IMG/VR virus record: IMGVR_UViG_3300021387_001477
Origin: a virus
Lineage: Duplodnaviria > Heunggongvirae > Uroviricota > Caudoviricetes
Length of the DNA stretch: 64,000 bases
Reading direction: 5' to 3' (one strand)
Both the position numbers and the translations under genes were made by a program. Below, one piece after another: positions 1,639 to 57,172 of this stretch; the stretch's first letter is position 1; every line of letters begins with the position of its first letter. Under the pieces are notes generated by a model, which worked only from the letters and a program-made list of their open reading frames with translations, searched no databases and was not told where the DNA came from.

Positions 1639-3134
1639 CAATTATGTTTACTTTAGGCCGTCTACTCCTAAAGCGAGAGTATCTCTCCACCTAGTTTCCT
1701 AGCGTGTTCAGACTATATTTTCATCTTCAGCATTACCTGGTCAGATGTCCTATCTTTCGAGTGGCCATAAGACTTGCCGCCCTACTCTCTTTCGAGATAG
1801 TCGTTGAAAGCGCAGTATTATATAAATCTAAATTCTGGTTGAAATTTACTTTTTATTCTGTAGTTTATTGCCTGTCTTTTTAGTCCATAGAATTTTGCAC
1901 ATTCTGTTATAGATCCAAAAATTTTCCCTTCAGCATATACTTGTTTTCTTAGTTTTTTCCTAGTACTTGGGTTATTCATGTTATCAACTCTAGTACATAT
2001 TCTAAGATTTGTTACGCGATTGTTTAATGGGTCAGTGTCTATGTGGTCTACCTGAAGATCGCTGCTCAGAGGCTGATTGTTATTTAGGAATACTTCAGCC
2101 ACTAGTCTATGAACTGGTAGCTTAGAGAGATATTGTCTATATCCGTTTTTCTTGCTTCCAAGAGTTATTCCTCGTTTTCCATTAATTATTCCTAATGGAT
2201 GAACTGAGAAGTTTCCGGAATAGTGTTGTACCCACAGAGAGCTGTCAATAGTCTCACCATCTAGCAGGTAATTTTCTAGTTCAACATCTACTATTTTCCA
2301 ATATCTTCCTCTATACCTCTTCCCGGCCTTAGCTTGATCACATAATGGATGTTTCATTAAATCGCTATTATATAATTCTTCTTCCGTATACGAAACATCA
2401 AACTTTGTAAGTTCTTTATCAAAATATGCTTCATATCTGTGATTTTTTACATATTTTGGTATTGATTTGTTTGAATTGTTTTCCTTAACGGTTACCCACC
2501 TTAGATTACTTAAAGAATAATCTAAAATGTTTCTATTTATATGATCGATTGACGTTTTTGTTTCTGGACAGTCCACTGGGATAAATAACTTTGCTAACAT
2601 TCTATGAATCATCACTTTTTTATCCTTAGTATAAGATCCAGTCGGAATTGAATACATAGGATAACCAGATTTATTAAATAATATGGTTTTGTATTGTGTT
2701 CCTTGTTTCCCCTGCTTTATAAATTCTCCTTTTCGATTAATTAGAAAAGCATTTACAACATTCATCTCAGGGTACAGGTACTTTTTTATATCGAACCACT
2801 CTTGATTAATATCATCATAGAAATAGTCCATCACTTCTCCACTTGTGGTGTTCCAACATAAAACTTCGTTTTTTATTTTTATAACTTGATATCCTACTTG
2901 ATCAACTCCTTCTCTGAATGGGATTGAGTTTTCAATAAGGAATTCTCTAGTTATTGTTTTCATTATGTCATGTCTTATCATAAGTATACTTATTTTAAAT
3001 ACTGCGCTTGCGGATTGTCCTTACTATATGAGTTTTTACTGTCAACCCAGTATCATATATTTAACAGGAGTTCCCCGCTTTTAATAGGATTATACGGTAT
3101 ATATTTCTATATACTAGGACAACTGTTACATTTT
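1639..3134 (-). mobile_element. group I intron 1 of topoisomerase II large-subunit gene, carrying an HNH homing-endonuclease ORF
   Basis: Interrupts IMTDADVDG motif; conserved intron 5' module repeated at 3055-3120 and 1350-1420; 3' R/S-like elements at 1700-1810; splice junction gaU|...G|gct. Confidence 0.7.
1818..2981 (-). CDS. HNH homing endonuclease (intron-encoded), paralog of 10386..11894
   Basis: HNH motif (HRLVAEVF...; DHIDTD...N) plus second HNH-like block HINRNILDYSLSNLRWVTVKEN; lies inside intron. Confidence 0.7.
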   Translation of the reverse strand: MIRHDIMKTITREFLIENSIPFREGVDQVGYQVIKIKNEVLCWNTTSGEVMDYFYDDINQEWFDIKKYLYPEMNVVNAFLINRKGEFIKQGKQGTQYKTILFNKSGYPMYSIPTGSYTKDKKVMIHRMLAKLFIPVDCPETKTSIDHINRNILDYSLSNLRWVTVKENNSNKSIPKYVKNHRYEAYFDKELTKFDVSYTEEELYNSDLMKHPLCDQAKAGKRYRGRYWKIVDVELENYLLDGETIDSSLWVQHYSGNFSVHPLGIINGKRGITLGSKKNGYRQYLSKLPVHRLVAEVFLNNNQPLSSDLQVDHIDTDPLNNRVTNLRICTRVDNMNNPSTRKKLRKQVYAEGKIFGSITECAKFYGLKRQAINYRIKSKFQPEFRFI

Positions 3135-4799
3135 ATCCGTTGCTATAATCACTTTGCCAAATCTTGAATATCGTTTAATTTTTTCATATGCCTCTTCAGG
3201 ACTACTACACCCAGTGGTTACGTTGTTTACGTCAATTCCAAGTCCGATGACTCTGAATATAGTAAACAATTCTCTATTATCCATCATAGAATCAGCTGTA
3301 TCAGAAACTACATTCTTGACACGGCCTCTTAAAGGAATGACAGCCGTATACTTCGTACTCTTTCGTGCAGCCTTTAGAGAACCACCAGGAGATAGACCTT
3401 CAACTATAAATGCCTCACAGTCCCATCTTTCTCCAGGTCCGGCAGTTGCATCACTAAGTCCCTCAATCATCTCGGTCTTAGCTTTGTATACTCCACGACC
3501 AGCCGCTTCATCCATAATCCTCTGAGCTTTATCTGCAGCTCCTAAATTTTTCATAGAGTCCGCTAGATAGTTAAGTCTATCTACATGTGCATCCCAATAA
3601 TCTGGATTCTTCTTAAATATCTTCTGGAATTCTTTTACAATTGGATCAAAGTCTGACTGTTTAACTTTGGCGAAATTCTTTAGCTTCTCTTTTGTTTGGC
3701 TATTGAATACTGTTTCTGCCGCTAAAGCTACAACACACATCTTTAGTCCATTGGTTACGTACCTGTGTTTAATTCCATAGGTTTCACGAAGAGCCCTAAT
3801 GAAACAGTCCTCTACATAATTGATATGAACACCAGAGTCTACTACGAGCGAATTTACAGATCCACAATATTCCTTCGGGCTTAACTCTTCATCGACTCCA
3901 AAAGATACAAACAAGTCAATATATTCATTCATGCTAGTATCTTCTGGAATGATTCTCTTCATAAATTCAAACCCATAGCCAACAAACCCAGACCCCAAGA
4001 GCTCCTTTCCCTCAACTTCAATTCTTGCCTTTCTCTTATAAAATTTTTCTAAGATAAGTAAGAAATATTGAAGATTTTGAATAGGAACTGCCATCTTTTT
4101 GATAACAGCTGGTTCATAGATTTCGGGATCTGGTTTAAAAAGAATTATGGTTGACATACCACTAGGAAGCTGTTTTTCAAACTTTTTACCAAATGCTGCT
4201 TTTTCAAGATCAGCTTTCTTCATGGCTCCCTCATAGTATTTATATCCTTTCTTATACCAAACTATATAAAACAGATCTTTCTTACTCCTAGGTCCTGCAT
4301 TATTCCAGAGGTCATATACTGCTTTTGTAGATTTATCCCAGTTAAGAGGAGTAATTCTAGACATTAGTATATAATCTTCAGAAACTGCATTAACAGCACT
4401 AGAGCCAACACCATTCATTCCAACGGTTGCTACTTTACTGTCTGAAAATTTGGAACCAGAGTGAAGGGTACTTATAGATAGGTCCGCTTGAATAATTGGA
4501 GCTCCATCTTCCCCAATCTCTGATGAAGGGTATATTGGAATACCGCGCCCATCATCTGCAACCATAGCATAACCGTTCATATATCTATCAATGATTATAT
4601 TTTGGGCAGAATGATAGCACTCATCAACAGAGTTATCAATTATTTCTCTCAAAAGTGTATCACAGCTGTCAGTTCCCGAAAGATACATTCCGATACGCTG
4701 ACGTATAGCCTGTGGAAACTTTAAGAGTTTAATCTCATCTGGATTTTCTAAATTATTAAATTCATCATTCATATTATTATAAATTAAATTAATATTCAA
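3135..4799 (-). CDS. topoisomerase II large subunit exon 1: GHKL ATPase + TOPRIM (GyrB/T4 gp39-like)
   Basis: MNGVGSSAVNAVS (GyrB GLHGVG region), EGLSPGGS (TOPRIM EGDSAGGS), ends ...IIATD at splice site; in-frame stop 2 codons into intron. Confidence 0.85.
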
Positions 4800-11912: not shown

Positions 11913-12323
11913 TTATCTAATTCTTCTAAACCTAACTACGTACTTGCTTTCATCTCTCCTAACTTGGGCCCCTTTTTCTCGAATGAATCTAAGAATTGGA
12001 TGGGTAATCCAGTTAGGAACTAAATCCTCTCGTTTAGTATCACACTCTACTTTAAGATCTTTGCAATTCATAATCTTATCATACATTCTTGTCATTGCAT
12101 ATGCACTCCCCTCAAATTCGATTGTATTTTCATCAATCATTTTCATAGGCATAGCACATTCATATGCATCCCCAGCTAATAGATCAAATAATAACTTAAT
12201 CTTTGGCCCATAACTCGCACAATATGACGTGTAATACTGATCATAGAACTTTCTAATCTCAAATATCTTAGAAGTTGGTACATAGTTTGTATTTGAATCC
12301 GTTATTACTTTATGTTTCCACAA
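11913..12323 (-). CDS. DNA polymerase A, terminal exon (motif C region and C-terminus)
   Basis: CASYGPKIKLLFDLLAGDAYECAMPMKMIDE ~ T7 gp5 LQSAGALICKLW...AYMAWVHDE; ECDTKREDLVPNWITHP ~ T7 DTEGKMGPNWAICH; preceded by intron S-element and G. Confidence 0.65.
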   Translation of the reverse strand: MWKHKVITDSNTNYVPTSKIFEIRKFYDQYYTSYCASYGPKIKLLFDLLAGDAYECAMPMKMIDENTIEFEGSAYAMTRMYDKIMNCKDLKVECDTKREDLVPNWITHPILRFIREKGAQVRRDESKYVVRFRRIR

Positions 12324-12640
12324 AGACTAGACTATATCATTATCCATATTTCAGGATAGATCGCGCTTCGAGAGCAGGACTTTCACCTGATCTCTACTTC
12401 CTTTCAGAATAGTCGTTACACCTTCCATTTCTGGCTTGGCTCGGGATTAGCATGCATTTCTGTTTAGCTTTCCCCGATAGCAAGATTTCTCTCACACCCT
12501 ATATTTCTAGGTTCACGATCTTTTGCACTCTAGAATTACCCCTAGAGGCCACAATTTTACTTATGGACTACAATAATTGGTTGGAGTGGTTGTTTCCAGC
12601 CCTCTTGTATTGATTCACGTATATTATTAAAGAATCCTGA
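12324..12640 (-). mobile_element. group I intron in polA (canonical core); 5' boundary approximate
   Basis: CGGGGAAAGCTAAACAGAAATGCATGCTAATCCCGAGCCAAGCC ... GTGTAACGACTATTCTGAAAGG ... AATGATATAGTCTAGTC ... G| then exon. Confidence 0.55.
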
Positions 12641-12669
12641 GGCCATGATTGAGGCAGTGCCACCTTGTC

Positions 12670-12700
12670 GTTATTACTTTATGTTTCCACAAAGACTAGA
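12670..12700 (-). repeat. duplicate of the 31-nt intron-3'-tail/exon-start sequence CTAGTCTTTGTGGAAACATAAAGTAATAACG (other copy 12298-12328)
   Basis: Exact-looking repeat directly after a second intron S-element but not followed by coding sequence. Confidence 0.5.
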
Positions 12701-12925
12701 TCATATCATTATCCACATTCATGGATAGGCTGCGCTTCGGAATACAGAATTTCACTGTAAACCTACTCCTTTCGGATGATCGTTACACTTTCTCTATCTC
12801 TAGAGCTTAGCACGGGATTGGCATATTATTACTAACTTAGCTTTCCCCGTTAGCAAGATCTCTCACACCTAAGATTTCTTAGTTCACAGCCTGTTTCATA
12901 TAGGATTACTCCTATAAGCTACAAT
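12700..12925 (-). mobile_element. group I intron in polA (canonical core); boundaries approximate
   Basis: CGGGGAAAGCTAAGTTAGTAATAATATGCCAATCCCGTGCTAAGC ... GTGTAACGATCATCCGAAAGG ... AATGATATGATCTAGTC. Confidence 0.5.
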
Positions 12926-13209
12926 TTTATTTATAGGAAGATTCACGCCTAATCTTTCACACCTCGCCTTTAGATTATTCTTCTCTCTGGAATTTGCTTT
13001 TAGCCACAGATCATATTCTTTAATTTTTAATTTATCGCCCATTATTGAATTAATATATCCATCATGGCTAAATGGATACTGTTGTTGAGAGGCCACATAC
13101 TCTCTCAATTTAGGGAAACTTGTATAAAGTCCCTGTATAATATCATCAGCTTCCTCTTCTGAGCAAAATAGTCTTTCAGCCAATGATTTCTTTCCTAGAC
13201 CATAAAGAA
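12896..13209 (-). CDS. DNA polymerase A internal exon (palm: end of motif B to QG region); true 3' splice end near 12926
   Basis: SLAERLFCSEEEADDIIQGLYTSFPKLREYV ~ Klenow [31 protein letters not shown]; ...ARCERLGVNLPIN ~ AAERAAINAPMQG; naive join to micro-exon is out of frame by one nt (see findings). Confidence 0.6.
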
Positions 13210-13464
13210 CCGTTTTGTTATCCTAGAAGTTTTTTTATCTCCTAGCTCTAGTAATTCATTTCTTACTAGTCCAGCATATATTTTCAACTCATATTTTCGA
13301 GTTGGTGGGCTCTCTTGGAAGGATTATATTTATTCACCTTCTATGCGTTACACTAGATTAAAGCCTCTCGCAATCTTTAACCTTAGCACGGGGTTTGGAT
13401 TCTCACCATTCACCGTTTTAGTCCACTTATCATCTATAATATCACTACTATAGACGGCATTTCT
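13210..13464 (-). mobile_element. family-B small group I intron (copy 2), 255 nt
   Basis: GTCTATAGTAGTGATATTATAGATGATAA...ACGGTGAATGGTGAG...GTAACGCATAGAAGGTGAATAAATATAATCCTTCC...GGATAACAAAACG; >80% identical to copies at 13485, 14242, 26113, 29352, 55218. Confidence 0.65.
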
Positions 13465-13484
13465 ACCTAAGAAGACAGTTTTGA
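13465..13484 (-). CDS. polA micro-exon (~20 nt, TCAAAACTGTCTTCTTAGGT) encoding core of polymerase motif B (KTVFLG ~ T7 AKTFIYG)
   Basis: Sits between two tandem family-B introns; with upstream exon gives RKRSF|KTVFLG; exact splice points uncertain. Confidence 0.45.
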
Positions 13485-13739
13485 CGTCTGTTATCCTATA
13501 GGCTTTTTATCCTATAGCTCTATTAGTTCATTTCCTAATAGTCCAGCATATATTTTCATCATTTCTTTTATGATGTCGAGCTCTCGTGGAAGGATTATAT
13601 TCTATTTATAGTTTCACCTTCTATGCGTTACGCTGCTATAGACTCTTTATTTCTATAGTTAGCACGGTATTAGGAATCTCACCCTTCACCGTTTTAGCTC
13701 GATTATCATCTATAGTATCACTACTATAGACGGCCCAAA
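13485..13739 (-). mobile_element. family-B small group I intron (copy 1), 255 nt
   Basis: Same conserved 5' GTCTATAGT..TATAG module, core and 3' GGATAACAGACG. Confidence 0.65.
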
Positions 13740-13740
13740 A

Positions 13741-13830
13741 TGACCTTTTTCTCCACATCTTCTTGTCTTTCTTGTCTAGTTTATCAAATTTATCGCCTAG
13801 ATAGAGCTTGGCGGTATATATATAACAATG
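13741..13830 (-). CDS. polA exon fragment (...TAKLYLGDKFDKLDKKDKKMWRKRS); 5' boundary unknown
   Basis: Open frame upstream of intron B1 ending in R-x-x-x-(F)K that completes motif B with the micro-exon. Confidence 0.35.
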
Positions 13831-13849
13831 TGTTCAGAGAGTGTCGTTA

Positions 13850-14143
13850 CTTCTCTCTGGTTCTCTTATGAACTCCTGTATATTTCTATACAGATCAGAC
13901 TATATCTTCACCTCAATACCGAGGGCTTACCGTTTCCACTACACGAACTTTGTAGTGTACTCTCTTTCGAGATAGTCGTTGGGGTTTTGATACAGAGCTA
14001 GTTAGTCATACTAGCCTTAATTTTATAAATATTTATCAAAACCTGCTGATTGGCCTTATTCTTTGATTTCTTACGGAAGTGACTAAATCTTCTCGTACCA
14101 AAGACTTAACGGGCGTTTCCAGCATTTAGTAAGTTTATTTTTC
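13850..14143 (-). mobile_element. group I intron (family C-like) in polA; boundaries approximate
   Basis: CAACGACTATCTCGAAAGAGAGTACAC ... GAAGATATAGTCTGATCTGTATAGAAATATACAGGAGTTCATAAGAGAACC tail (tail duplicated at 14530-14570). Confidence 0.45.
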
Positions 14144-14144
14144 T

Positions 14145-14241
14145 TGGGATCACTCCCAAGCGATACTTAAATCTAATATCTTCGCCTTTATTAAACTTAT
14201 CAATCAAGTCGGGATCTCCGCTTGCGAAACCTGCAGCTTTT
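14145..14241 (-). CDS. polA exon fragment between motifs A and B (KAAGFASGDPDLIDKFNKGEDIRFKYRLGV...)
   Basis: Follows G of intron B3; resembles Klenow LLTAFAEGKDIH region; ends at 20-nt hairpin repeat CTTGGGAGTGATCCCAAG. Confidence 0.4.
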
Positions 14242-14498
14242 CAGTTATGTTATCCTAAGAGCTTTTTATCTCTTAGTTCTATAGATTCTTATTTATATTC
14301 TCTATAGCTCGGCGTACATTTTTAACTATCGCTAGTTATCGGACACTCTTGGAGATACTATATTTATTCAATCTCTACGCTCTACATTACTAGAGTGCCT
14401 TTCGAAATCACTCTAGTTAACTCGGTATTTAGATTCACACTATTTACCGATTTTGCCCGATTATACTCTATAGTGTTTCCACTATAGACGGCATTTCT
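14242..14498 (-). mobile_element. family-B small group I intron (copy 3)
   Basis: GTCTATAGTGGAAACACTATAGAGTATAATCG...CGGTAAATAGTGTGAATC...GTAGAGCGTAGAGATTGAATAAATATAGTATCTCC...GGATAACATAACTG. Confidence 0.6.
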
Positions 14499-14509
14499 AC
14501 CTCTGCACT

Positions 14510-14741
<232 letters not shown>

Positions 14742-17423
14742 TTAGTTTTTCTTGGGATCACTCCCAAGTGACACCAATAATTTATTTTCAATGTCAAAAT
14801 AAGTTTCAATAAAGTCTTCATCTACTATATTCCCATTCTCGTCAATATGATATGGCGTTCGAACACAATCTTTAAAATCTGCATGACTAACCAAGACATG
14901 GAACGCACTAGACCACCTCTTTGAACTCTTTGTGTTGACCTCATAATGACAAAAGCATTTATGTACTGCTCCTGGCTCATTAGGGTCAGCTTCACGAATA
15001 GGAATATGTTTTTCGTCCTCAATTACCCACTTTCCCTCTTTCAGCATTCCATCAATATAGGTCGATAGAACCTTTGAATATTTTTTGAAGAGCAGATAAT
15101 TGATGACCATTTTTCTCATAAAATAGAATCTGTTATCAAAGTCAGATTCATTGAAGATCTTTCCATAATCTTCATATTGATCAGAAACATACTTAAAGAA
15201 CTGTTCCTGAGCGATATATCCATTAAAGTTACTCCACACCTCTTTTACCTGATCACATCCTAAGTCATTATAGAATTGATCAAACAGGACATATACTTTT
15301 TCTGGATAACTGGTTTGCCCTACTGGAGTTCCTTGATAAAGTTTTGTATAGTTCTCTCCAAAATGAGCAAATCCATCTTCAACTGTTTTTATACCGAGTT
15401 GTTCATAATATTTTTCTGCGCCTGGAAGTTGCTGCGCACTTTCAAACATTGCAGCGAGATATGCAGACTCGGTAGGATACAGTTGAGCAAATTCCAAACA
15501 GATCTCATCATTTTCAATGGGGGACTTACACTTAAAGAAGTTATCCGATACATAATCTGAATAACTAATTAAATCCCATTTTTGTCCAAATGCATAGATC
15601 TCTTGAGGAATGTTTTGTATGTCATTAAGTTGATTCTTTGAGACTTTCATTAACTCATTGAACGCTCTTTCATAATATAGATACTTCTCAAGCTCTATGT
15701 GTTTGTCATTTATCTTTATTTTATCTAGTCCGATTATAGGAATTAGTTTATCTCCCAAGACCTGTTGGATCTTCTTCTTTCCGCCAATTCCTGAATCAAT
15801 CTTAGACTTCAATACTTTCTGACCTGTTTTCTTATAGAGTTTTATCATTCCTACCTCTTCCATTGCTTCTCTTAGGACTTTCATAAAATTGGTAGCAAAG
15901 TCTGGACCATACTTCATTAATAATTGGCCCTCGTTTATACCAAGTTCATAAGCATCCATAGTATCAACATTAGAAGTCAGAAGATACTTAGCTATTTCAG
16001 CCGGATTTCCATTAAAGAAGGTATTATCATGCAGCAGTTTCTTGGCAATATCAGAATAATTATCTATATTTGCCATCTTTTTCTTGTGCTTATCCATCTT
16101 TATTTTACACCTAGCTTCACTACAAAACGTAATGCTCCACGCAATCATCTCTTTCGACTTCTTTTCATACTCCAATCTAAATGGCTCGTCAATATATAGG
16201 CCACAATTATGAAGTCTGGCGCCCAATCTTGCATTATCCATAAAGGTTCTAATACAATCTTCAGAGAATTTATCTTTCTCTACCAGATGTATCATAAGAG
16301 TATAGAAAGCGTCAAGATTACAATAATACCCTAATATTTCTGATGGAACACACATAAATGAACTCTTGTCCCAGTATTCAAGTATTAAAGCTTCAAATTC
16401 ATTTATATAACTTGGGTATCTTGCGCATATCTCAGCCCATTCCGGAGTTGTTTTAAAATCAGAGGGAGTAATTTTTAGAACTTTCTTCTTATCTTTCTTA
16501 AGTTTCCCTACTTCTTCATAAAACATGCTTTCAACAAGATCTGAGATTCTGTCAAACTCGGTATCCCAGACAGTAGCCTGAAGTATCATTTGGGCTGACC
16601 ACTTTAAGGAATATTTCTTTAAGTGATTTCCCTCAATGACATTATAAACAGACGCATCTATAAGATTATATAGGTCTACTCCAAACATTCTATGAGATAC
16701 GGCCTGTTCATATTGCATATTATAAGTTACAAGATGACTCTGCCTATGATTCAAAAAATCTCCAAATCTTTTACATATCATTCCGTATTGTTCAGGACTA
16801 CATGTATGTCTAAGATCTGTAAAACTTATAAATCCTCCGAAGTTTTTTGTACACAGTGATGCCCCAGATATATCAAACCATACATCCAAAGCCATACCAG
16901 ATGCCTCGAAGTCAAAGCCTAGGTCCTCAGTCTCTGGAAGATTACAAAGCCAGTCTAAAAATTTCATTGCTCCAGTAAAATCATGAATAACTTTACTTTG
17001 GAACCAGGAAAAATCAACGGGCTGTGTAAATCCTGGAGACATAAAATCTCTAATTATGTCTGGAGAAGGAGGATCTAGAACTACCTTAACAAAAGCTCCG
17101 CCCTCTATACTTAACCTTCGAAGTTTGGACACATCGAAGTAATTCTCTGACCTAACCCCAAAGTGATAGAACTGGTTTAGATATCGATAAGGTTCTGCCC
17201 CCACCAACATAACAGCATCACTTGGGCCTAATGTCAGAAACTCTCTTTTTGCATCATCGGACATAGATTCAATATTCTCAACCGTAAAGATCTGAGATGA
17301 ATCCAGCCCTATTCCATAATAATCCACCACGTAATTTGGTGTTTCTTTAGCTGAAATTAATACAAATCGTTTGTTCATAAATCTAAATATTAATATACCT
17401 TTGAGCCGATATCTTACATACAC
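14742..17423 (-). CDS. DNA polymerase A exon 1 (N-terminal region incl. 3'-5' exonuclease-like domain, no polymerase motifs A/B/C)
   Basis: 893-aa ORF; GFDFEASGMALDVWFD exo-like block; last codons overlap the 20-nt hairpin repeat so true 5' splice site may lie slightly upstream of the stop. Confidence 0.65.
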   Translation of the reverse strand: MYVRYRLKGILIFRFMNKRFVLISAKETPNYVVDYYGIGLDSSQIFTVENIESMSDDAKREFLTLGPSDAVMLVGAEPYRYLNQFYHFGVRSENYFDVSKLRRLSIEGGAFVKVVLDPPSPDIIRDFMSPGFTQPVDFSWFQSKVIHDFTGAMKFLDWLCNLPETEDLGFDFEASGMALDVWFDISGASLCTKNFGGFISFTDLRHTCSPEQYGMICKRFGDFLNHRQSHLVTYNMQYEQAVSHRMFGVDLYNLIDASVYNVIEGNHLKKYSLKWSAQMILQATVWDTEFDRISDLVESMFYEEVGKLKKDKKKVLKITPSDFKTTPEWAEICARYPSYINEFEALILEYWDKSSFMCVPSEILGYYCNLDAFYTLMIHLVEKDKFSEDCIRTFMDNARLGARLHNCGLYIDEPFRLEYEKKSKEMIAWSITFCSEARCKIKMDKHKKKMANIDNYSDIAKKLLHDNTFFNGNPAEIAKYLLTSNVDTMDAYELGINEGQLLMKYGPDFATNFMKVLREAMEEVGMIKLYKKTGQKVLKSKIDSGIGGKKKIQQVLGDKLIPIIGLDKIKINDKHIELEKYLYYERAFNELMKVSKNQLNDIQNIPQEIYAFGQKWDLISYSDYVSDNFFKCKSPIENDEICLEFAQLYPTESAYLAAMFESAQQLPGAEKYYEQLGIKTVEDGFAHFGENYTKLYQGTPVGQTSYPEKVYVLFDQFYNDLGCDQVKEVWSNFNGYIAQEQFFKYVSDQYEDYGKIFNESDFDNRFYFMRKMVINYLLFKKYSKVLSTYIDGMLKEGKWVIEDEKHIPIREADPNEPGAVHKCFCHYEVNTKSSKRWSSAFHVLVSHADFKDCVRTPYHIDENGNIVDEDFIETYFDIENKLLVSLGSDPKKN

Positions 17424-22296: not shown

Positions 22297-22596
22297 GGCC
22301 CGATAGTTCAGAGGATAGAACGACAGCCTTGAAGCGCTAAAAATGATATTAGCATTAGGAGTGCACTGAGGGAAACTTCAGATGTAGAACTCTTCAAATT
22401 CGGGGAAAGCGTAATAGCCAATCCCGAGCCAAGCCTAGAAAATCGTTCTAGGAAGGTGTAGAGACTAGACGGAGAGGGCCTAAAAGATTATTTGATAATC
22501 TCATGGTCAAGGGATAGTCCGAGATGAGAATTATTATTAATTATTCTCATTGAGCTAAGCTGTAAGTCCTGCGTTCGAATCGCAGTCGGGCCGCCA
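22297..22596 (+). tRNA. tRNA-Arg (UCU, inferred from splice rules) interrupted by a 224-nt group I intron (22331..22554); CCA encoded
   Basis: GGCCCGA-TA-GTTC-AGAGGATA-GAAC-G-ACAGC-CUU|intron|CUAA-GCTGT-AAGTC-CTGCG-TTCGAAT-CGCAG-TCGGGCC-G-CCA; anticodon assignment depends on exact junction. Confidence 0.6.
22331..22554 (+). mobile_element. group I intron (ORF-less) in tRNA-Arg
   Basis: GAGTGCACTGAGGGAAACTTCAGATGTAGAAC...TTCGGGGAAAGCG...CCCGAGCCAAGCC...GGTGTAGAGACTAGACGGAGAGGGCCTAA...GGGATAGTCCGAG. Confidence 0.75.
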
Positions 22597-22737
22597 ATAA
22601 AAACCATTTGGAGTTAACATTCAATAAGATTCGTAAAGAGTGAGAATGTGAATAGCAGAAAACGCTAGCTCCTCAACATAAAATTAACAAATCCAGATAT
22701 AGATCTTCTGCTTATACAGAATTCTAATCTGGACAGA

Positions 22738-25593: not shown

Positions 25594-25665
25594 GATCCAT
25601 TAGTTCAACGATAGAACAACTGTCCCTAAAACAGCACGTTGTCGGTTTGAATCCGACATGGATCA
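25594..25665 (+). tRNA. tRNA with anticodon CUA (amber-suppressor-like; anticodon loop CCCUAAA with C33 and a 27-43 mismatch)
   Basis: GATCCAT-TA-GTTC-AACGATA-GAAC-A-ACTGT-CCCUAAA-ACAGC-ACGTT-GTCGG-TTTGAAT-CCGAC-ATGGATC-A; otherwise canonical 72-nt cloverleaf. Confidence 0.5.
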
Positions 25666-25702
25666 CAAAGGACCTAAAATCCTTATAAAAGAAAATAAAT
25701 AA

Positions 25703-26057: not shown

Positions 26058-26390
26058 CGGGATGTAGCGCAGTTGGTAGCGCATGTGGTTTGGGACCACA
26101 GGGTCGCAGGTTTATTTTTACAATGGACGTCTATAGTGGAAACATTATAGAGAATAATTGGGCAAAAACGGTGAAGGCTGAGATTGCTAACGCCGTGCTA
26201 ACTAGATATATTGCGAAAGGATATCTAGCAGCGTAACGCATAGGAAGTGAATAAATATAATCTTCCCACGAGTGTCCAACAGCCACAGTAGATGTGGTTG
26301 AAAACGTATGCTGGACTAATACAAAATGAAGTATTAGAACATAGAGATAAAAAGCTTTATGGTTAACATTCGCGAGTCCTGTCATCCCGA
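26058..26390 (+). tRNA. tRNA-Pro (UGG) interrupted in the T-loop by a 260-nt family-B group I intron (26113..26372)
   Basis: Exon1 CGGGATG-TA-GCGC-AGTTGGTA-GCGC-A-TGTGG-UUUGGGA-CCACA-GGGTC-GCAGG-TT (ends U); exon2 CGAGT-CCTGT-CATCCCG-A restores T-loop TTCGAGT and acceptor; intron ends ...AACATTCG. Confidence 0.7.
26113..26372 (+). mobile_element. family-B small group I intron in tRNA-Pro T-loop
   Basis: GACGTCTATAGTGGAAACATTATAGAG...ACGGTGAAGGCTGAGATTGCTAACGCCGTGCTAACTAG...GCGTAACGCATAGGAAGTGAATAAATATAATCTTCC. Confidence 0.65.
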
Positions 26391-26411
26391 CTAAAAGAAA
26401 ATAGGTAGAAA

Positions 26412-28852: not shown

Positions 28853-28900
28853 AAAATTGTAGACTCGGCTTGGTGGTGGAATGGTAGACACGAGGGACTT

Positions 28901-29319
28901 TAACGTTACTTAAAGGGAAATTATTTCCAACTTATTAAGTATAATTTGAGTGCACTGAAGGAAACTTTAGATGTAGAACCTCCCTAATTCGGTGAAAGCT
29001 AAGCGCAACGCTGCAAAACGCTCCCTGAAATACGGTTAGCGCCTATAGGATAAAGATGCGTATAAATTGCGTATGCTAATACCGAGCCAATGTTTAAAGA
29101 CAGTGTGTAGAGACGAGATACGGGAGGGACCTAAGTTGAAATTTATAAACGTAGTGGGTGGGAATTACCACGTTAAATCCAAAACCTGAGATAAAAGGCA
29201 TTTATAATCTTGCAAGATTTCAATATGGTTAAGATACAGTCCAGACCACAAACAGATTAAGAGCAGAACCAACCTGTATATCAAAGATTTAATCTGGTAG
29301 CGAAAGCTATAGTGGTAAG
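28901..29319 (+). mobile_element. group I intron at the classical tRNA-Leu(UAA) U34/A35 site
   Basis: GAGTGCACTGAAGGAAACTTTAGATGTAGAAC...TTCGGTGAAAGCTAAGC...ACCGAGCCAATG...GTGTAGAGACGAGATACGGGAGGGACCTAA...GATACAGTCC. Confidence 0.65.
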
Positions 29320-29351
29320 AAAATCCCTTGGGCAGAAGTGCCCGTGTGGGT

Positions 29352-29605
29352 TCTCAATCGAGCCGTCTATAGTGGAAACATTATAGATTATAACTGAGCA
29401 AAATCGGTGAAAGCTGAGATGCCAATACCGAGGTAACTATGGGAATATCGAAAGGTCCTATAGCACCGTAGAGCATAGAAGGTGAATAAATATAATCCTT
29501 CCAAGAGTGTTCAGCATCATGGAAGAAGTGATGAAGATATATGCCGAACTATTAGGAAATGAACTAATAGAGCACAGAGATAAAAAACTCTGTGGATAAC
29601 AAATT
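29352..29605 (+). mobile_element. family-B small group I intron in tRNA-Leu T-loop
   Basis: Near-identical to 26113..26372 and 55218..55455 copies; ends GGATAACAAATTG. Confidence 0.6.
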
Positions 29606-29697
29606 GTCGAATCCCATCCGAGCTACAATATAGCCCTGAAATAGTAAAAACGCTATTTTCAGGGTTTCTTTTCCTTATTAATGAAAGGATATCAATT

Positions 29698-51750: not shown

Positions 51751-53832
51751 ATGGAAGTTAATAAATTAGAGGAACTGATTGGGTTAAAAGATACCCAACA
51801 GAAAATGAATGTTATAGAAATTCCAGTTCCGAGAGATGTAAACTTTATCTCGGAGTGGAAGGACTATTCATATCCACAAGGCCATTGTATAGTAGATAAA
51901 ACTATATGTGGCTGTGGATATACAGAATTTTGCTTAAGAAATGACATACCTACGATTCTTCTCTCCCCTAGAAAAGCACTTCTTGAGAATAAAGAGAGAC
52001 AACATAATCGGCCTGATGAGAATGGCCAAATTCTTTATCCTGTCTATTATTTCAGGAATGAGAAAGAGGCCCTGGTAGATTTTGATAATTCTCTTGTTCC
52101 AGATAAAGGCGAAGAGAAAAACGTTACCTCTCTTAGTTTCACGGTTATAGATAAAAACGCTATGGCCATAAGTCAAGAAGAGAAGGCACAGTATCTCATG
52201 AATCTTAAGATGCAACTTTCAAACTATCTACAAACAACCCAAACAACACCAAAAATCCTAGTTACTTATGATTCTCTCCCACATGTCCTTGATGTAATTG
52301 GTGATAAGGTTGGAATGTTTTCTGTGGTTGTAGACGAGTTCCAGAGCCTGTTTTCAGATTCTGTATTTAAGCCTGATGTAGAAATGACAACCATAGATTA
52401 CCTTAAGGATCTTCCAAATGTTCTTTATCTCTCTGCTACTCCCATGATGGATAGATATCTTGGAATGATAGATTATTTCAAGTCTCTTCCAATGTATAAA
52501 TTGATCTGGGATAATTCTAGAACTGAGAATATACGAATTGATCGGAGGGTTGTTAAATCTATTATAACGGAATGCACAGATATAATTCAATCCTATAAAA
52601 ATGGTATATTTCCTGAGAAAGTAGTTAAGGGAAAGATATATAAATCTAAAGAGGCAGTATTCTTTGTCAATTCGGTAAAGACTATATGTGATCTTATTAG
52701 GAAAAATAAACTTAACCCTTCTGAGGTTAATATTCTTTGCTCTCACTCTCCGAAGAATTTACAACGAATAAAGAAGCTTGGAAAAGGATTCGATTATGGA
52801 ACAATACCGCTAAAGGGAGAATATCATAAAATGTTTACCTTTTGTACTAGGACAACTTATCTTGGTGCAGATTTTTATTCTACTAATGCTATAACAATTA
52901 TCTGTTCTGACATAAATATAGATACACTTAACCTTGATATTGCTTTAGATCTTCCTCAAATTGTAGGTAGACAAAGACTTCCTGAGAATGTGTTTAGAAA
53001 CGAGATCATTTATATCTTCAGAGGAGCTAATAAAGGAGCTCTTGTGATAACCAAAGATCAATTTTTAGACCATATGAAGGAGAAGATGGACAGAACCTCA
53101 GATCTATTATATATTTATGATACTTCAGAGGGTCGAGTTAGAGATAGTTATGTTTATACGATTCGAGAAAACACAGAAACACATAAATATAAAAGTAATT
53201 TCGTCGGAATTCAGGGAGGAAATGGGTTGACAGAGAATTACCTTGTTATCCTTTCTGAGTGTAGGGCATATGAAATATCTAGGCCGGAATATCAGGACAA
53301 AGTTATAATTAAGAAGGAGCTTGATGCTAATGATGGTTTTATATACTCCGATTCAAAGAGTGTTGCCCAGGAAATAAATGATCTTGAGGCAGAGTTTAGA
53401 AAGGATAATAATTTTGAGAGAAGAATGAGGCTACTATGTGATTTTATAGATCATCGGCCAGAAACATATAAACAATATTCTGGTTATATGTCTTCGTTTA
53501 TTCCAATTGAGTATCAGAATTATCTCGAACTTTTAAGTACTTCTGAAATCAGGGCTGTTTCTTACCGTGAAGTTAATCTTAAGGAAAAGGTGGAAACTTT
53601 AAAAACACAAGACAACAGAAAATTAATCATTGTAGATAAATTTCCTATTGGGTCTAGGTGGCTACTCTCAACTATAAAAAATATATTAAGAGACGTGTAC
53701 GCTAGTCTTAATATATCTAAGTCGCCAAAGGCTAGTGATATTACTGAGTATCTGGAGGTGAAGGATGTAATTATGAATGACCCTTCTACTAATAAGAAGG
53801 CTCGAGGTTATGAAATTTTAAAGGTAAAGTAA
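51751..53832 (+). CDS. SF2 helicase-like protein with C-terminal ~150-aa module duplicated in next gene
   Basis: VVDEFQSL (DExx), LYLSATPM (SAT); C-terminus NNFERRMRLLCDFID...SEIRAVSYREVNLK...GYEILKVK. Confidence 0.5.
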   Translation: MEVNKLEELIGLKDTQQKMNVIEIPVPRDVNFISEWKDYSYPQGHCIVDKTICGCGYTEFCLRNDIPTILLSPRKALLENKERQHNRPDENGQILYPVYYFRNEKEALVDFDNSLVPDKGEEKNVTSLSFTVIDKNAMAISQEEKAQYLMNLKMQLSNYLQTTQTTPKILVTYDSLPHVLDVIGDKVGMFSVVVDEFQSLFSDSVFKPDVEMTTIDYLKDLPNVLYLSATPMMDRYLGMIDYFKSLPMYKLIWDNSRTENIRIDRRVVKSIITECTDIIQSYKNGIFPEKVVKGKIYKSKEAVFFVNSVKTICDLIRKNKLNPSEVNILCSHSPKNLQRIKKLGKGFDYGTIPLKGEYHKMFTFCTRTTYLGADFYSTNAITIICSDINIDTLNLDIALDLPQIVGRQRLPENVFRNEIIYIFRGANKGALVITKDQFLDHMKEKMDRTSDLLYIYDTSEGRVRDSYVYTIRENTETHKYKSNFVGIQGGNGLTENYLVILSECRAYEISRPEYQDKVIIKKELDANDGFIYSDSKSVAQEINDLEAEFRKDNNFERRMRLLCDFIDHRPETYKQYSGYMSSFIPIEYQNYLELLSTSEIRAVSYREVNLKEKVETLKTQDNRKLIIVDKFPIGSRWLLSTIKNILRDVYASLNISKSPKASDITEYLEVKDVIMNDPSTNKKARGYEILKVK

Positions 53833-53835
53833 ATT

Positions 53836-54807
53836 ATGCTGTATCTATTAAGATCTTTTGGAAGGAAGAAATCTATATTAAAGGTCGGATATGCCAGTGA
53901 TATAGATAGGAGAGTGAATACTTATTTTACGTATGCTCCCTATACAGAACTTATTAATACAAAAGAAGGGGATTTTACGGATGAGACTATGCTACATATT
54001 TATCTTCATTATCTTGGTTTTGGAAAATTGGGTAATGAATGGTATGAAGATTGTCAAGAGGTTATAGACGTATTTAATTCAGACCTTAATGATGTTTTAA
54101 AGGAGGTCTGGGATAAAAGGGATTCTATATTTTCCTTGATAGATTTAGACCAAGTATGTAAAGCAGAGGTATATAGAAGAGCACTGGAAAGATATAAACC
54201 GGCGGATTTTATTCCGGTAGATAGATTTTCATACGATGCAGATTCAGACAAGATACTTCGAATAAATAAGACAGGAGAAGCTATTGATGAAGCCTATCAG
54301 TTGAGATTGGATCAAGAAACTCTATTAAATAACCAAAACTTAAATCAAGAGGTTTCGAGCCTATATTCAGAATATTCGATAGACAGTAATTTTGAGAGAA
54401 GGATGAGATTATTGTGTGATTTTATAGACAATAATTCTGAATTCTATAAAAGTAATATCGATACCATTTCTGTATTAATGTATAGGCAGGTTCAATTTGC
54501 TGAATCATTAAGTACTTCTGAAATTAGAGCAGTTTCTTATCGAGAGGTTAATCTTAAGAAGATAATAGAAGTGCAGAAGACACAGGATAACAGAAAATCA
54601 ATCATCGTAGGTAAATTTTCTGTTGGGTCTAGGTATTCTCTTTCGTCAATTAAAGATACCCTAAGGGAGTCATATGCGCAACTCGGAATACTTAAGTCGC
54701 CGAAGGCTAGTGATATCTTAGAATTTCTTGAAGTAAAGAAAGTAAAAATCATTGACCCTAGTACAAAGGAGAAGATAAATGGTTATGAAATTTTAAAAGT
54801 GAAGTAA
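53836..54807 (+). CDS. putative GIY-YIG/T5orf172-like N-terminal domain protein sharing C-terminal module with upstream helicase
   Basis: KSILKVGYASDIDRRVNTYF...; C-terminus SNFERRMRLLCDFID...SEIRAVSYREVNLK...GYEILKVK. Confidence 0.4.
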   Translation: MLYLLRSFGRKKSILKVGYASDIDRRVNTYFTYAPYTELINTKEGDFTDETMLHIYLHYLGFGKLGNEWYEDCQEVIDVFNSDLNDVLKEVWDKRDSIFSLIDLDQVCKAEVYRRALERYKPADFIPVDRFSYDADSDKILRINKTGEAIDEAYQLRLDQETLLNNQNLNQEVSSLYSEYSIDSNFERRMRLLCDFIDNNSEFYKSNIDTISVLMYRQVQFAESLSTSEIRAVSYREVNLKKIIEVQKTQDNRKSIIVGKFSVGSRYSLSSIKDTLRESYAQLGILKSPKASDILEFLEVKKVKIIDPSTKEKINGYEILKVK

Positions 54808-55217
54808 TGTTAAATATTTACGTAGATAAGAATATAGGGAAAATAGTTCTAAAGACAGATGATTCTTCTGCTAGGTACCTTCTTGAAAAAACAGAGAAGG
54901 AAACTAAATTTATACCAAGGCTTAGGAAGTATGGAACTATAACCAGAACAACTAAGATTTATGATAATACAAGAGTGAGGCCGGATAAGGATGGTGTATG
55001 GACGTTTTATCTTGGTCTTGGTTGGGCTGGATATCTTGCAAGTGTGTTTTTTAAGTTTATGACAAAGGCAGAATATGACCAACTTCTTCTTGATGCCGTC
55101 TATTCTGATAACGTAAGAACAGTACCATTTCCAAATTTGCGAGATTACCAAAATTCCGATGCTCTCCACCTTTTAAAATATAAAATTGGTCTATTCAGTT
55201 GTTATACAAGTTACGGT
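54807..55217 (+). CDS. SF2 DNA helicase exon 1 (Q-motif LRDYQ and first part of Walker A ...GLFSCYTSYG)
   Basis: Exon ends TACGGT (U); tracked ORF terminates 2 codons later at TGA inside intron. Confidence 0.65.
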
Positions 55218-55455
55218 AAATGATTTGCCGCATTATATAATGATACTTCGGGTAAAAACGGTGAAGGGTGAGATTCCTAATACCGTGCTAACTACTGTAA
55301 TTACGAAAGGTATAGTAGTAGTGTAGAGCATAGAGGTTGAATAAATATAATACCTCCAAGAGTATCCGACATAGAGATATGAAAATATATGCCGAACTAA
55401 TACGAAATGAAGTATTAGAACTATAGGATAAAAAGCTTATAGGATAACAAAATTG
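55218..55455 (+). mobile_element. family-B small group I intron splitting the helicase Walker A motif; begins AAATGA (in-frame stop)
   Basis: ACGGTGAAGGGTGAGATTCCTAATACCGTGCTAACTAC...GTGTAGAGCATAGAGGTTGAATAAATATAATACCTCC...GGATAACAAAATTG; join gives TSYG|KTELIA = GxxxxGKT. Confidence 0.65.
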
Positions 55456-56550
55456 AAAACTGAATTAATAGCAACATTAGCCAATTATTTTTATGGTATT
55501 GGTAAGAAGGTTTTAATTGTTACACCAGGCCAAAAACCGAGACAAGAGGTGGAGAAAAGAATAAAAGAAAGATTTGGTATAGACGTCAAAAATTCTGGTG
55601 GTAGGATTATGTCTATTATAACATCTGGTCTTTTAAAGAGAAATGATATAAAAGACCCTGATCAATTAAAGAAGTTTGAAAATGAGCTTGCTTCCGTTGA
55701 CTGTCTCTTGGTTGATGAGGTTGAGTATACTATAAATGATTCGGGGATGTTTATATATGATAGGGTTATTCATGCAGATCATTTCTATGGATTTTCAGGA
55801 ACTGCCGATAAGAAAAAAGGCGAAATGATATCCTTTGTTAATGGTCTGGATGATTCAATTATACGAAATAAAGACCTTATAAAATACTTCGGCCCGTCTC
55901 TCGTATATAGAATGCCACTTGATCTTAAGGTCGATTATATCCGGGTTAAGACAAGTACATTGAATAGAGTTAAATTTTTACCGGAAGATTTTGCAGATAA
56001 TACTAATGTTTATAATAATGTGATATGCAGAATTTTCACGGATCCAGATGTATGTCGACTTGTTGTGAAGATAGCAAAGAGATATCCAAAAATCTATCTT
56101 CCAATGTATAACTTAACCTCCGTGATTAGTGAGTGGCTTAGCTATTTCTCTGCCGCTAAATTAAGGGTACTTCTCATATGTGGTGAGGGATTTCTTTATT
56201 ATGACGAGAATGGAGTGAAGACTAAACTCAAAGATCTAGCCGAAGCCTGTGAATATGTTAAAAATAATAGGGTAGATGTAATTCCTTCAACGTCAGCCGG
56301 TTTTCGTGCCCTTGATCTCCCTGGACTTGAAACTACACTCCTAACTATTGGAAAGATGGCAGGTGTTGTACTTCAGAGTGTGGGAAGAACGGCAAGAGGA
56401 AGCCATATGAACTTGATTACTCTTGAGCCCTTCCCTAAAAAGAAAATTCCAGTATATACAAGTGGAATGAAGGAAAGGGATGAGATGATTTTGCAATATT
56501 ATAAGTATTGTGATATAGTAGAAAGTGAAATTTTTGATAAGAACTTATGA
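55456..56550 (+). CDS. SF2 DNA helicase exon 2 (motifs Ia, II DEVE, III, VI QSVGRTARG)
   Basis: LLVDEVEY, FSGTA, VLQSVGRTARG; no in-window ATG start, begins right after intron G. Confidence 0.65.
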   Translation, partial: KTELIATLANYFYGIGKKVLIVTPGQKPRQEVEKRIKERFGIDVKNSGGRIMSIITSGLLKRNDIKDPDQLKKFENELASVDCLLVDEVEYTINDSGMFIYDRVIHADHFYGFSGTADKKKGEMISFVNGLDDSIIRNKDLIKYFGPSLVYRMPLDLKVDYIRVKTSTLNRVKFLPEDFADNTNVYNNVICRIFTDPDVCRLVVKIAKRYPKIYLPMYNLTSVISEWLSYFSAAKLRVLLICGEGFLYYDENGVKTKLKDLAEACEYVKNNRVDVIPSTSAGFRALDLPGLETTLLTIGKMAGVVLQSVGRTARGSHMNLITLEPFPKKKIPVYTSGMKERDEMILQYYKYCDIVESEIFDKNL

Positions 56551-56870
56551 AATACAAGAAAGGAGATGTAGTTTATATAGCTCAATTAATACCTGGAAAA
56601 ACATTGAGCAGATTAAATACAAAGATTTTACCAAAGAAGGTAGTTGTACAAGGGCCTTATGATACTGACTGTTATATGCTTTCTTATATTCCAGAGGGAG
56701 AAAAATATACATCCCGTGCATATAATTATGAAGGAAGTCTAATTGTCTCTTCTTCTATAGAGGAATGTATAGAAAAATTTAATGATCAGGTAGATAAGAT
56801 CATTAAGGAAAAGGAAGAGGCATTGGAGAAATGGAAGGAGAAAATGAAAAAATTAAAAATATTACTATGA
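56547..56870 (+). CDS. hypothetical protein
   Basis: 107-aa ORF. Confidence 0.45.
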   Translation: MKYKKGDVVYIAQLIPGKTLSRLNTKILPKKVVVQGPYDTDCYMLSYIPEGEKYTSRAYNYEGSLIVSSSIEECIEKFNDQVDKIIKEKEEALEKWKEKMKKLKILL

Positions 56871-57172
56871 AAAAGAAAGTTTGGATCACGACTCTTGAAT
56901 TAAATAAGGCTGGGAATAGAGTTTTACATAATATTCCACCGACCCTGGCAGAATGCGAAGGGGATAGGTATTGTCGATATACTCCTCTTGAAGGAAAGTA
57001 TAAAGGAAAGACGCTGTCCGAATATTCTTATGTTATAGATAGTTTTGATACTGTCGAAGAGGCGATAGATAATTACAATAATCTTATAAATGATTGTCTG
57101 GAGGAAATTCAGGACAGGAAGGAGGCATTAGAAGAAGCATATAAAAAATTGGAGAGTTTACGAATAAAATAA
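56831..57172 (+). CDS. hypothetical protein
   Basis: 113-aa ORF. Confidence 0.45.
   Translation: MEGENEKIKNITMKKKVWITTLELNKAGNRVLHNIPPTLAECEGDRYCRYTPLEGKYKGKTLSEYSYVIDSFDTVEEAIDNYNNLINDCLEEIQDRKEALEEAYKKLESLRIK

Follow-up and report, generated by a model that had tools for sequence, protein, structure and literature searches.

Jug phages of the gut, whose genomes span 360-402 kb, carry ~18.5 group I introns per genome (mean length ~206 nt), which fragment terL, nrdD and polymerase genes, and metatranscriptome junction reads support the splicing of 37 of 76 such introns (PMC12880540). Zeta and Delta crAss-like phages have a comparable group I intron load (PMC7886860), and the Lactobacillus delbrueckii phage JCL1032 is cited as proven to carry self-splicing group I introns (Riipinen & Alatossava 2004, Arch Virol 149:2013, as cited in PMC6669764). 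Here we analyse a 64,000-nt stretch of Caudoviricetes DNA (IMG/VR record IMGVR_UViG_3300021387_001477; the whole stretch is hereafter referred to as the window), in which a gene for a superfamily 2 (SF2) helicase is interrupted within its P-loop (Walker A motif). The insert is, with high probability, a 238-nt group I self-splicing intron devoid of an open reading frame (ORF) and located, within that motif, between the codons for Gly (GGU) and Lys (AAA).

The window phage recalls the Jug phages, as a likeness only and without assignment to them. In common with the Jug and Zeta/Delta crAss-like phages, it has a high density of introns in essential genes and short ORF-less introns (~206 nt in the described phages) beside copies that bear homing endonucleases. 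It differs from the Jug phages, which are said not to recode, in having a tRNA with a CUA anticodon. The protein encoded by exon 2 of the helicase recurs unchanged on a 317-kb ENA contig, and relatives of the helicase are found on contigs of up to 404 kb. The helicase intron is real, but nothing unusual among gut phages rich in introns: it represents a widespread phage intron type with an already known mechanism, and it adds one further essential replication gene to the intron-bearing genes of these phages.

Two exons of one helicase gene

54807..55217, + strand: helicase exon 1, 137 codons ending ...TSYG, aligning colinearly to the first 137 residues of homologues that have no interruption
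55218..55455, + strand: the insert, very probably a group I intron; 238 nt, no ORF, 223 bits on the covariance model R1 (see below)
55456..56550, + strand: helicase exon 2, 364 codons plus stop, N-terminus KTELIA; carries motifs II, III and VI

ORFs 54807-55223 and 55453-56550 are two exons of one UvsW-like SF2 helicase. As called, the first ends ...GLFSCYTSYGK* and the second begins (TTG)KTELIATLANY.... At the boundary between exon 1 and the insert, positions 55209-55229 read ...AGT TAC GGT | AAA TGA TTT GCC..., and at the boundary with exon 2, positions 55447-55467 read ...ACAAAATTG | AAA ACT GAA TTA ATA.... Joining 54807..55217 to 55456..56550 yields a 501-aa protein, for which a search of a large protein collection returned 295 relatives, mostly uninterrupted and ~500 aa long. 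Uninterrupted homologues align to the joined query with 100% coverage and 47-68% identity (E as low as 1e-233). The alignment is gapless at the junction, which sits in the near-invariant block T-x-Y-G-K-T, and across which the uninterrupted homologue P0002 reads GLFSCYTSYGKTELIATLANYFY. The joining of the exons is confirmed as an observation far above chance. A first-pass annotation of this locus had placed the split inside Walker A and had held that the P-loop GK[T] exists only after exon joining; both statements are borne out, with exon 1 ending ...TSYG and exon 2 starting KTELIA. Among the 120 relatives listed, seven are proteins of 365-369 aa that start M-KTELIA and are therefore split at the same site as the window helicase. 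Gene callers accordingly give two orphan ORFs (138 and 365 aa) in place of one helicase.

Motifs II (LLVDEVEY), III (FSGTAD) and VI (LQSVGRTARG) all lie within exon 2, where they had previously been annotated. Motif I (GK[TS]), motif II (DExx), motif III and motif VI (QxxGRxxR) are readable in the joined protein and conserved in the alignment. Residues 66-280 of the joined protein, spanning the junction at residues 137/138, match PHROG_16 'DNA helicase' (E 1.9e-12), and the Pfam families ResIII, DEAD and Helicase_C match its homologues; the earlier assignment to SF2 thus stands. The match to PHROG_16 was obtained with the joined protein itself and that to UvsW through a profile of the helicase family (T4 UvsW, PDB 1rif; E 0.0028, aligned from the N-terminal domain into motif I), whereas a Pfam search with the window protein alone gave zero matches above threshold. 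A PDB search with the single joined protein gave nothing significant. T4 UvsW is a phage replication/recombination SF2 helicase in which motifs I, II, III and VI are also present, although its sequence relationship to the window helicase is weak; 'UvsW-like SF2 helicase' appears to be a fair name. To our knowledge, the T4 uvsW gene has no intron. In relatives, a DnaB-like gene lies next to the helicase.

Because the intron and exon 2 both open with AAA, protein colinearity would allow the splice sites to slide by 3 nt. In group I introns, the base at position -1 is a U that pairs with a guide G, and the last intron base is a G (PMC11915505), a rule that holds only for 55217|55218 and 55455|55456. 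The terminal G55455 (omega-G) is fixed by colinearity together with the U(-1) rule, as are those of the helicase orthologues L086, L124 and L127, of JCL1032 and of a copy in tRNA-Pro. The unspliced frame closes early, as had been annotated: the second intron codon is an in-frame stop (AAA UGA, 55221-55223), and unspliced RNA can encode only a 138-residue fragment, with UGA following one intron codon. An alternative code in which UGA is read through was ruled out; further UGA and UAA codons occur among the following 20 in-frame codons, and recoding therefore does not rescue the unspliced frame.

The group I fold of the insert

The insert had been classed as a family-B intron. That grouping is upheld by five other family-B copies in the window, which are 75-76% identical to the helicase intron; the identity of the family as a group I subfamily had gone unrecognised. 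The fold below was worked out manually on seven sequences before being tested on A3, a MAFFT alignment of 15 copies that was not fitted to structure, and on A4, which comprises 118 copies (from the window and from IMG/VR loci) found by R1, a covariance model of the nested helices in which P7 is omitted.

55221..55223, + strand: in-frame UGA, second intron codon, in the P1 loop (sequence reading)
55224..55230, + strand: putative internal guide, UUUGCCG; GCCG forms P1 with CGGU of exon 1, UUU can pair with exon 2 AAA (P10)
55231..55242, + strand: P2 hairpin, CAUU AUAU AAUG; missing from orthologue L127 and not the same in paralogues
55248..55253, + strand: P3 5' strand, UCGGGU; 6 pairs, all with two-sided changes in A4
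55258..55286, + strand: P4 (ACGGUG/UACCGU) around P5 (GGG/UCC); corresponds to P4/P5 of RF00028 in a bridge sequence
55292..55318, + strand: P6 hairpin, 8 bp, conserved loop AUUNCGAAAGG; 8/8 pairs covary
55326..55332, + strand: P7 5' strand, G-A(bulge)-GCAUA; G55328-C55392 is the candidate guanosine-binding pair
55333..55356, + strand: P7.1 hairpin, GAGGU...ACCUC, conserved loop UGAAUAAAUAUAAU; from covariation
55364..55369, + strand: P3 3' strand, AUCCGA; from covariation
55370..55381, + strand: P8 hairpin; length varies across the family
55382..55393, + strand: J8/7 (AAAAUA) and P7 3' strand UAUGCC; aligns to AAGAUAUAGUC of RF00028
55397-55418 and 55421-55442, + strand: P9 and P9.1 hairpins; from covariation and energy-based folding
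55443..55455, + strand: 3' tail GAUAACAAAAUUG, last base omega-G (55455); tail common to orthologues and JCL1032

The elements follow one another in the order P1-P2-P3-P4-P5-P4'-P6-P7-P7.1-P3'-P8-P7'-P9-P9.1-tail-G. In A3, 94.5% of cells pair, versus 29-41% after a shift of the 3' partners by 1-3 columns; two-sided changes occur in 36 of the 51 pairs, and the covariation score is 0.68 versus ~0.1 in the shifted controls. The corresponding values in A4 are 96.5% of cells paired and two-sided changes in 47/51 pairs. P7.1 (5 bp) is paired in 99.6% of cells of A4 and changes on both sides in all five pairs. The P7 pseudoknot is paired in 99.5%; since P7 is absent from R1, the A4 alignment was not fitted to it. 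Its G-C pair is invariant (101/101; columns 194-386) and adjoined by a bulged base at column 193, and its closing pair switches between AU (53), GC (44) and CG (4). The P3/P7 pseudoknot with its G-C pair and bulge, as predicted from these alignments, is built like the guanosine-binding site of group I introns. Energy-based folding of the helicase copy by itself recovers P1, P2-P6, P7.1, P8, P9 and P9.1 (z = -3.25).

The exon strand of P1 is formed by the last 4 nt of helicase exon 1, CGGU, opposite the guide GCCG (55227-55230), with U55217 and G55227 making a U.G wobble at the 5' splice site. P1 is also subject to compensatory change. The helicase orthologues L086 and L027 combine exon UAUGGU with guide GCCA, versus UACGGU and GCCG in the window, and the tRNA-Pro paralogue combines exon GUU with guide GAC, versus GGU and GCC in other copies.

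A link to curated group I introns is provided by a Streptococcus parasanguinis sequence (L209, 5708-6013) that scores both with RF00028, the Rfam group I model Intron_gpI (65.1 bits, cut-off 50), and with R1 (143.6 bits). The two models place P3, P4/P5, P6, J6/7-P7, P3', P8, J8/7-P7' and P9 on the same nucleotides. The helix names therefore do not depend on our own reading alone, and the family is connected to curated group I introns via an intermediate. Family-B introns and RF00028, which represents the classical IA-type core of phage introns, have the same helix order and similar J8/7 motifs (AAAAUAUAUGCC versus AAGAUAUAGUC). They differ in P7, which is GCAUA/UAUGC in family B and GACUA/UAGUC in RF00028, and in the P9.1 hairpin and post-P9 tail that family-B introns add.

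Two other pairings were considered and rejected. The tail pairing GGAUAAC x GUGUCC as P7 is broken in copies 13485-13742 and 13211-13464, and the GUGUCC region belongs to P3'; CGGGC x GCCGA as P3 is broken in copy 29352-29606. Separately, the pemK RNA motif (RF02913) matches below threshold (22.6 bits, cut-off 34.8) at 55237-55282 (+), over P2-P5. This match was set aside as an identity for the intron and is treated as chance or as short motifs shared with the intron family.

Several points weigh against a group I intron at this site. RF00028 gave no match on 55100-55600 even at E <= 10, and at gathering score it detected none of the six family-B copies in the window; the JCL1032 intron likewise escapes it, as do 20 of 21 strong R1 copies (18 bacterial loci, L136-L209). 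P1 is short, with 4 bp to the exon plus three A-U pairs that the intron's own AAA could also make. P10 amounts to three A-U pairs (UUU/AAA), for which the intron's own first AAA competes; it is longer elsewhere (UUUU/AAAA in JCL1032, UCGA/UCGA in the tRNA-Leu copy). The helix layout, in which an additional P7.1 hairpin separates P7 from P3' and a P9.1 hairpin is also present, is IA-like, a level that falls short of IA1, IA2 or IA3. Finally, we infer splicing of the window copy in vivo from sequence. Against these points stand the observed colinearity of the exons, the core helices with their covariation, the U at -1, the omega-G and the presence/absence polymorphism described below, on which we base our high confidence in a group I intron.

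Predicted splicing and alternative explanations

Splicing would be expected to follow the standard group I mechanism. P1 would arise from pairing of the guide 5'-UUUGCCG-3' (55224-55230) to CGGU at the exon end, the U.G wobble lying at the splice site, and free guanosine, bound at the P7 G-C pair, would attack after U55217. The UUU of the guide would hold the first AAA of exon 2 (P10). The terminal G55455 would then enter the G site and the exons would be ligated to ...UACGGU-AAAACUGAA..., such that a 30-mer across the spliced junction would read ...GTTGTTATACAAGTTACGGT|AAAACTGAATTAATAGC... and both the reading frame and the P-loop TSYGKT would be restored.

The first-pass annotation had proposed that splicing may serve as an on/off switch, the phage tuning its helicase through regulated excision of the intron and the early stop providing a clean 'off' state. 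A functional P-loop does need splicing, unspliced RNA does stop after one codon, and there is precedent in the c-di-GMP-controlled group I intron of Clostridioides difficile and in the translation-coupled splicing of T4 td. However, early in-frame stops are generic among phage group I introns: many phage and bacterial group I introns open with TAA, TAG or TGA, and others stop within 27 nt, upstream of the core (PMC2504315). No riboswitch or known sensor was found in 55100-55600, where an Rfam search for an aptamer beside the ribozyme returned only the sub-threshold pemK match and two snoRNA models. The same intron type also occurs in tRNAs, in the DNA polymerase gene and in other ATPases, Walker A being a recurrent target of the family, and close relatives of the helicase lack the intron, which is therefore dispensable for helicase regulation. 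We thus found no support for a dedicated regulatory switch and consider it improbable; modulation of splicing efficiency remains compatible with the data.

The insert might instead be a decayed, non-splicing relic that leaves the helicase as a pseudogene in the window phage. The ORF list contains no ORF of at least 60 aa inside the 238-nt intron and thus no homing-endonuclease ORF, in keeping with decay, as is the fact that splicing here is a prediction. Yet the helicase copy scores second-best with R1 among those of the window, at 223 bits, its helices are all intact, the invariant P7 G-C pair among them, its guide still fits the exon, and both exons are conserved and free of stops and frameshifts; we regard a relic as very unlikely. 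Still less credible, to the point of being negligible, is the production of two separate polypeptides or a ribosomal bypass of 238 nt in place of RNA splicing: exon 2 can be called as an ORF from TTG 55453, but that TTG is the end of a conserved intron tail (AAAAUUG) common to other host genes, the break falls within the P-loop (G|KT) such that neither half would bind ATP, the insert has a conserved ribozyme fold, and the known bypass of T4 gene 60 spans 50 nt, not 238.

Relatives, alleles and recurrent insertion sites

When 54000-57000 was compared by BLASTN with 50,697 phage records, the insert alone was matched, in 42 records that span crAss-like, Clostridioides, Bacillus, Staphylococcus, Leptolyngbya and Lactobacillus phages. 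A 25-nt degenerate pattern derived from the element occurs in at least 120 contigs of IMG/VR and at least 120 of GTDB genomes.

The terL intron of JCL1032 is 72.8% identical to the helicase intron over 180 nt and scores 185 bits with R1. It is of similar length (226 nt versus 238 nt) and interrupts the same Walker A Gly|Lys boundary (GGA CGT AAG AAC GGT | AAA ACT ACG, G-R-K-N-G|K-T). The guide logic (UUUUGCCGUU against AACGGU|AAAA) and the 3' tail GAUAACA...AUG are also the same. The terL coding sequence is annotated as joined from two pieces, and exons 1993-2445 and 2672-4027 of this locus (L001) agree with the frames. The differences are that the host gene is a terminase of a Bacillota siphovirus, that the P5 region is unlike that of the window intron, and that the JCL1032 introns are reported to be self-splicing whereas splicing of the window copy is predicted. 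In the crAss-like phage cr6_1, a copy follows an 'intron-encoded endonuclease' and splits an AAA+-type Walker A motif (...AGTKGTG | KTVMAKILA...); the two halves of this ATPase are annotated as separate proteins.

At the helicase site itself, three further alleles were found:

L124 (398-kb contig): helicase-intron orthologue that shares the splice sites and the guide (UUUGCCGCA) of the window intron and carries a 274-aa ORF
L127: helicase-intron orthologue, a 224-nt version without P2
L130: helicase (68% identical protein) that is uninterrupted; TAT GGG AAA ACG, with G and not U at -1

The L124 ORF (504-1328) is endonuclease-like, with faint matches to LAGLIDADG_3 and HTH_8, and sits in the P1 loop, flanked by the 5' splice site and the guide. 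Together, these alleles form a picture typical of an optional, mobile group I intron that gains and loses an endonuclease. The set (an intron with an endonuclease ORF, one lacking an ORF, one lacking P2, and an empty site) should be useful for following the intron gain/loss cycle. In cr6_1 (L002), the endonuclease ORF is placed as in L124, and in many IMG/VR copies the sequence directly upstream of the guide looks coding (...YLERKY...).

Insertion between Gly and Lys of Walker A recurs in unrelated ATPases, namely TerL, the cr6_1 AAA+ ATPase and the helicase (L001, L002, L005, L060, L063, L086 and others). The guide is complementary to GGU|AAA, and related introns interrupt terminase, an AAA+ ATPase and further P-loop genes at this G|K[TS] boundary; the Walker A location would reflect a target preference of the intron family and not regulation specific to the helicase. 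The complementarity to GGU|AAA was present in the copies checked (JCL1032, L005, L086 and L124). In the IMG/VR sample, 19 of 110 distinct copies have an exon 2 that starts K-[TS]; the majority look like plausible P-loops and come from at least five protein families, whereas a few are chance. P-loop hosts so far comprise the SF2 helicase, TerL (JCL1032 and IMG/VR contigs), the cr6_1 AAA+ ATPase and several genes in which exon 2 begins K[TS].

From this distribution we tentatively suggest, as a possibility that we rate below even, that the lineage is a specialist for P-loop codons, its guide UUUGCC[G/A] reading the near-universal GGU|AAA(AC), and that it could move between unrelated ATPase genes. 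The tRNA T-loop GGUUCGA may then be a second such target. Movement would perhaps proceed by reverse splicing and not by endonuclease homing, with GGUAAAAC as a candidate target. If so, the family would offer a natural example of RNA-guided ectopic intron spread, and the cutting of the helicase 'exactly' in its P-loop would be accounted for.

The blindness of the standard Rfam model extends from this intron to a large subfamily (at least 120 viral and at least 120 bacterial contigs). Because RF00028 misses the subfamily, annotations of helicases, terminases, polymerases and tRNAs in gut phages will be wrong where no dedicated model is applied, and published intron counts based on RF00028 may be too low. 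A modest extra interest of the helicase intron is therefore that it belongs to an abundant, RF00028-invisible subfamily that repeatedly targets P-loop codons and tRNA T-loops.

The window contains at least 12 group I introns, comprising four detected by RF00028, six of family B and two in tRNA anticodon loops. Among the family-B copies, that of the helicase ranks second on R1 (223 bits); the others are:

~13211-13464, 13485-13742 and 14242-14498, - strand: family-B introns in the DNA polymerase gene; splice sites from the GGU|...G rule only
26113..26372, + strand: family-B intron in the T-loop of tRNA-Pro(UGG); R1 match, excision gives a perfect tRNA
29352..29606, + strand: family-B intron in the T-loop of tRNA-Leu(UAA); R1 match

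The DNA polymerase gene (11913-17423, - strand) holds seven group I introns, in which four RF00028 introns (12308-14800) are interleaved with the three of family B. Two of the latter flank a 20-nt micro-exon at 13465-13484 (TCAAAACTGTCTTCTTAGGT), with sites set by the GGU|...G rule and not by polymerase homologues.

In the tRNA-Pro(UGG) gene (26059-26392, + strand), the intron lies between U55 and C56, and its removal leaves a perfect 74-nt tRNA according to ARAGORN. T-loop group I introns have been published for tmRNA genes (PMC11915505); we found no published report of one in an ordinary tRNA. In 18 bacterial loci with copies of the intron family, Rfam detected no tmRNA, so that the family gains neither a tmRNA link nor a subgroup name from that side. 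A class II tRNA-Leu(UAA) (~28868-29625, + strand) apparently has two group I introns, one in the anticodon loop and one in the T-loop, and ARAGORN calls the 85-nt tRNA-Leu(UAA) only when both are removed. The anticodon-loop intron (28901-29319) occupies the classical U34|A35 site and scores 41.6 bits with RF00028, below the cut-off. A tRNA-like gene at 22298-22600 (+), which reads GGCCCGATAGTTCAGAGG... and has the 3' end ...GTCCTGCGTTCGAATCGCAGTCGGGCCGCCA, also appears to be split near its anticodon loop. The 5' part of its ~220-nt insert resembles the tRNA-Leu anticodon-loop intron, and R1 gives only 29 bits at 22385-22626. The tRNA with anticodon CUA (25594-25666, + strand) lies in a tRNA cluster, is labelled tRNA-Pyl by ARAGORN and is amber-suppressor-like.

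Just 5' of the helicase, ORFs 51751-53832 and 53836-54807 (+) have closely similar C-terminal regions of ~150 residues (NFERRMRLLCDFID...STSEIRAVSYREVNLK...GYEILKVK), a likeness that suggests either a tandem partial duplication or a common domain.

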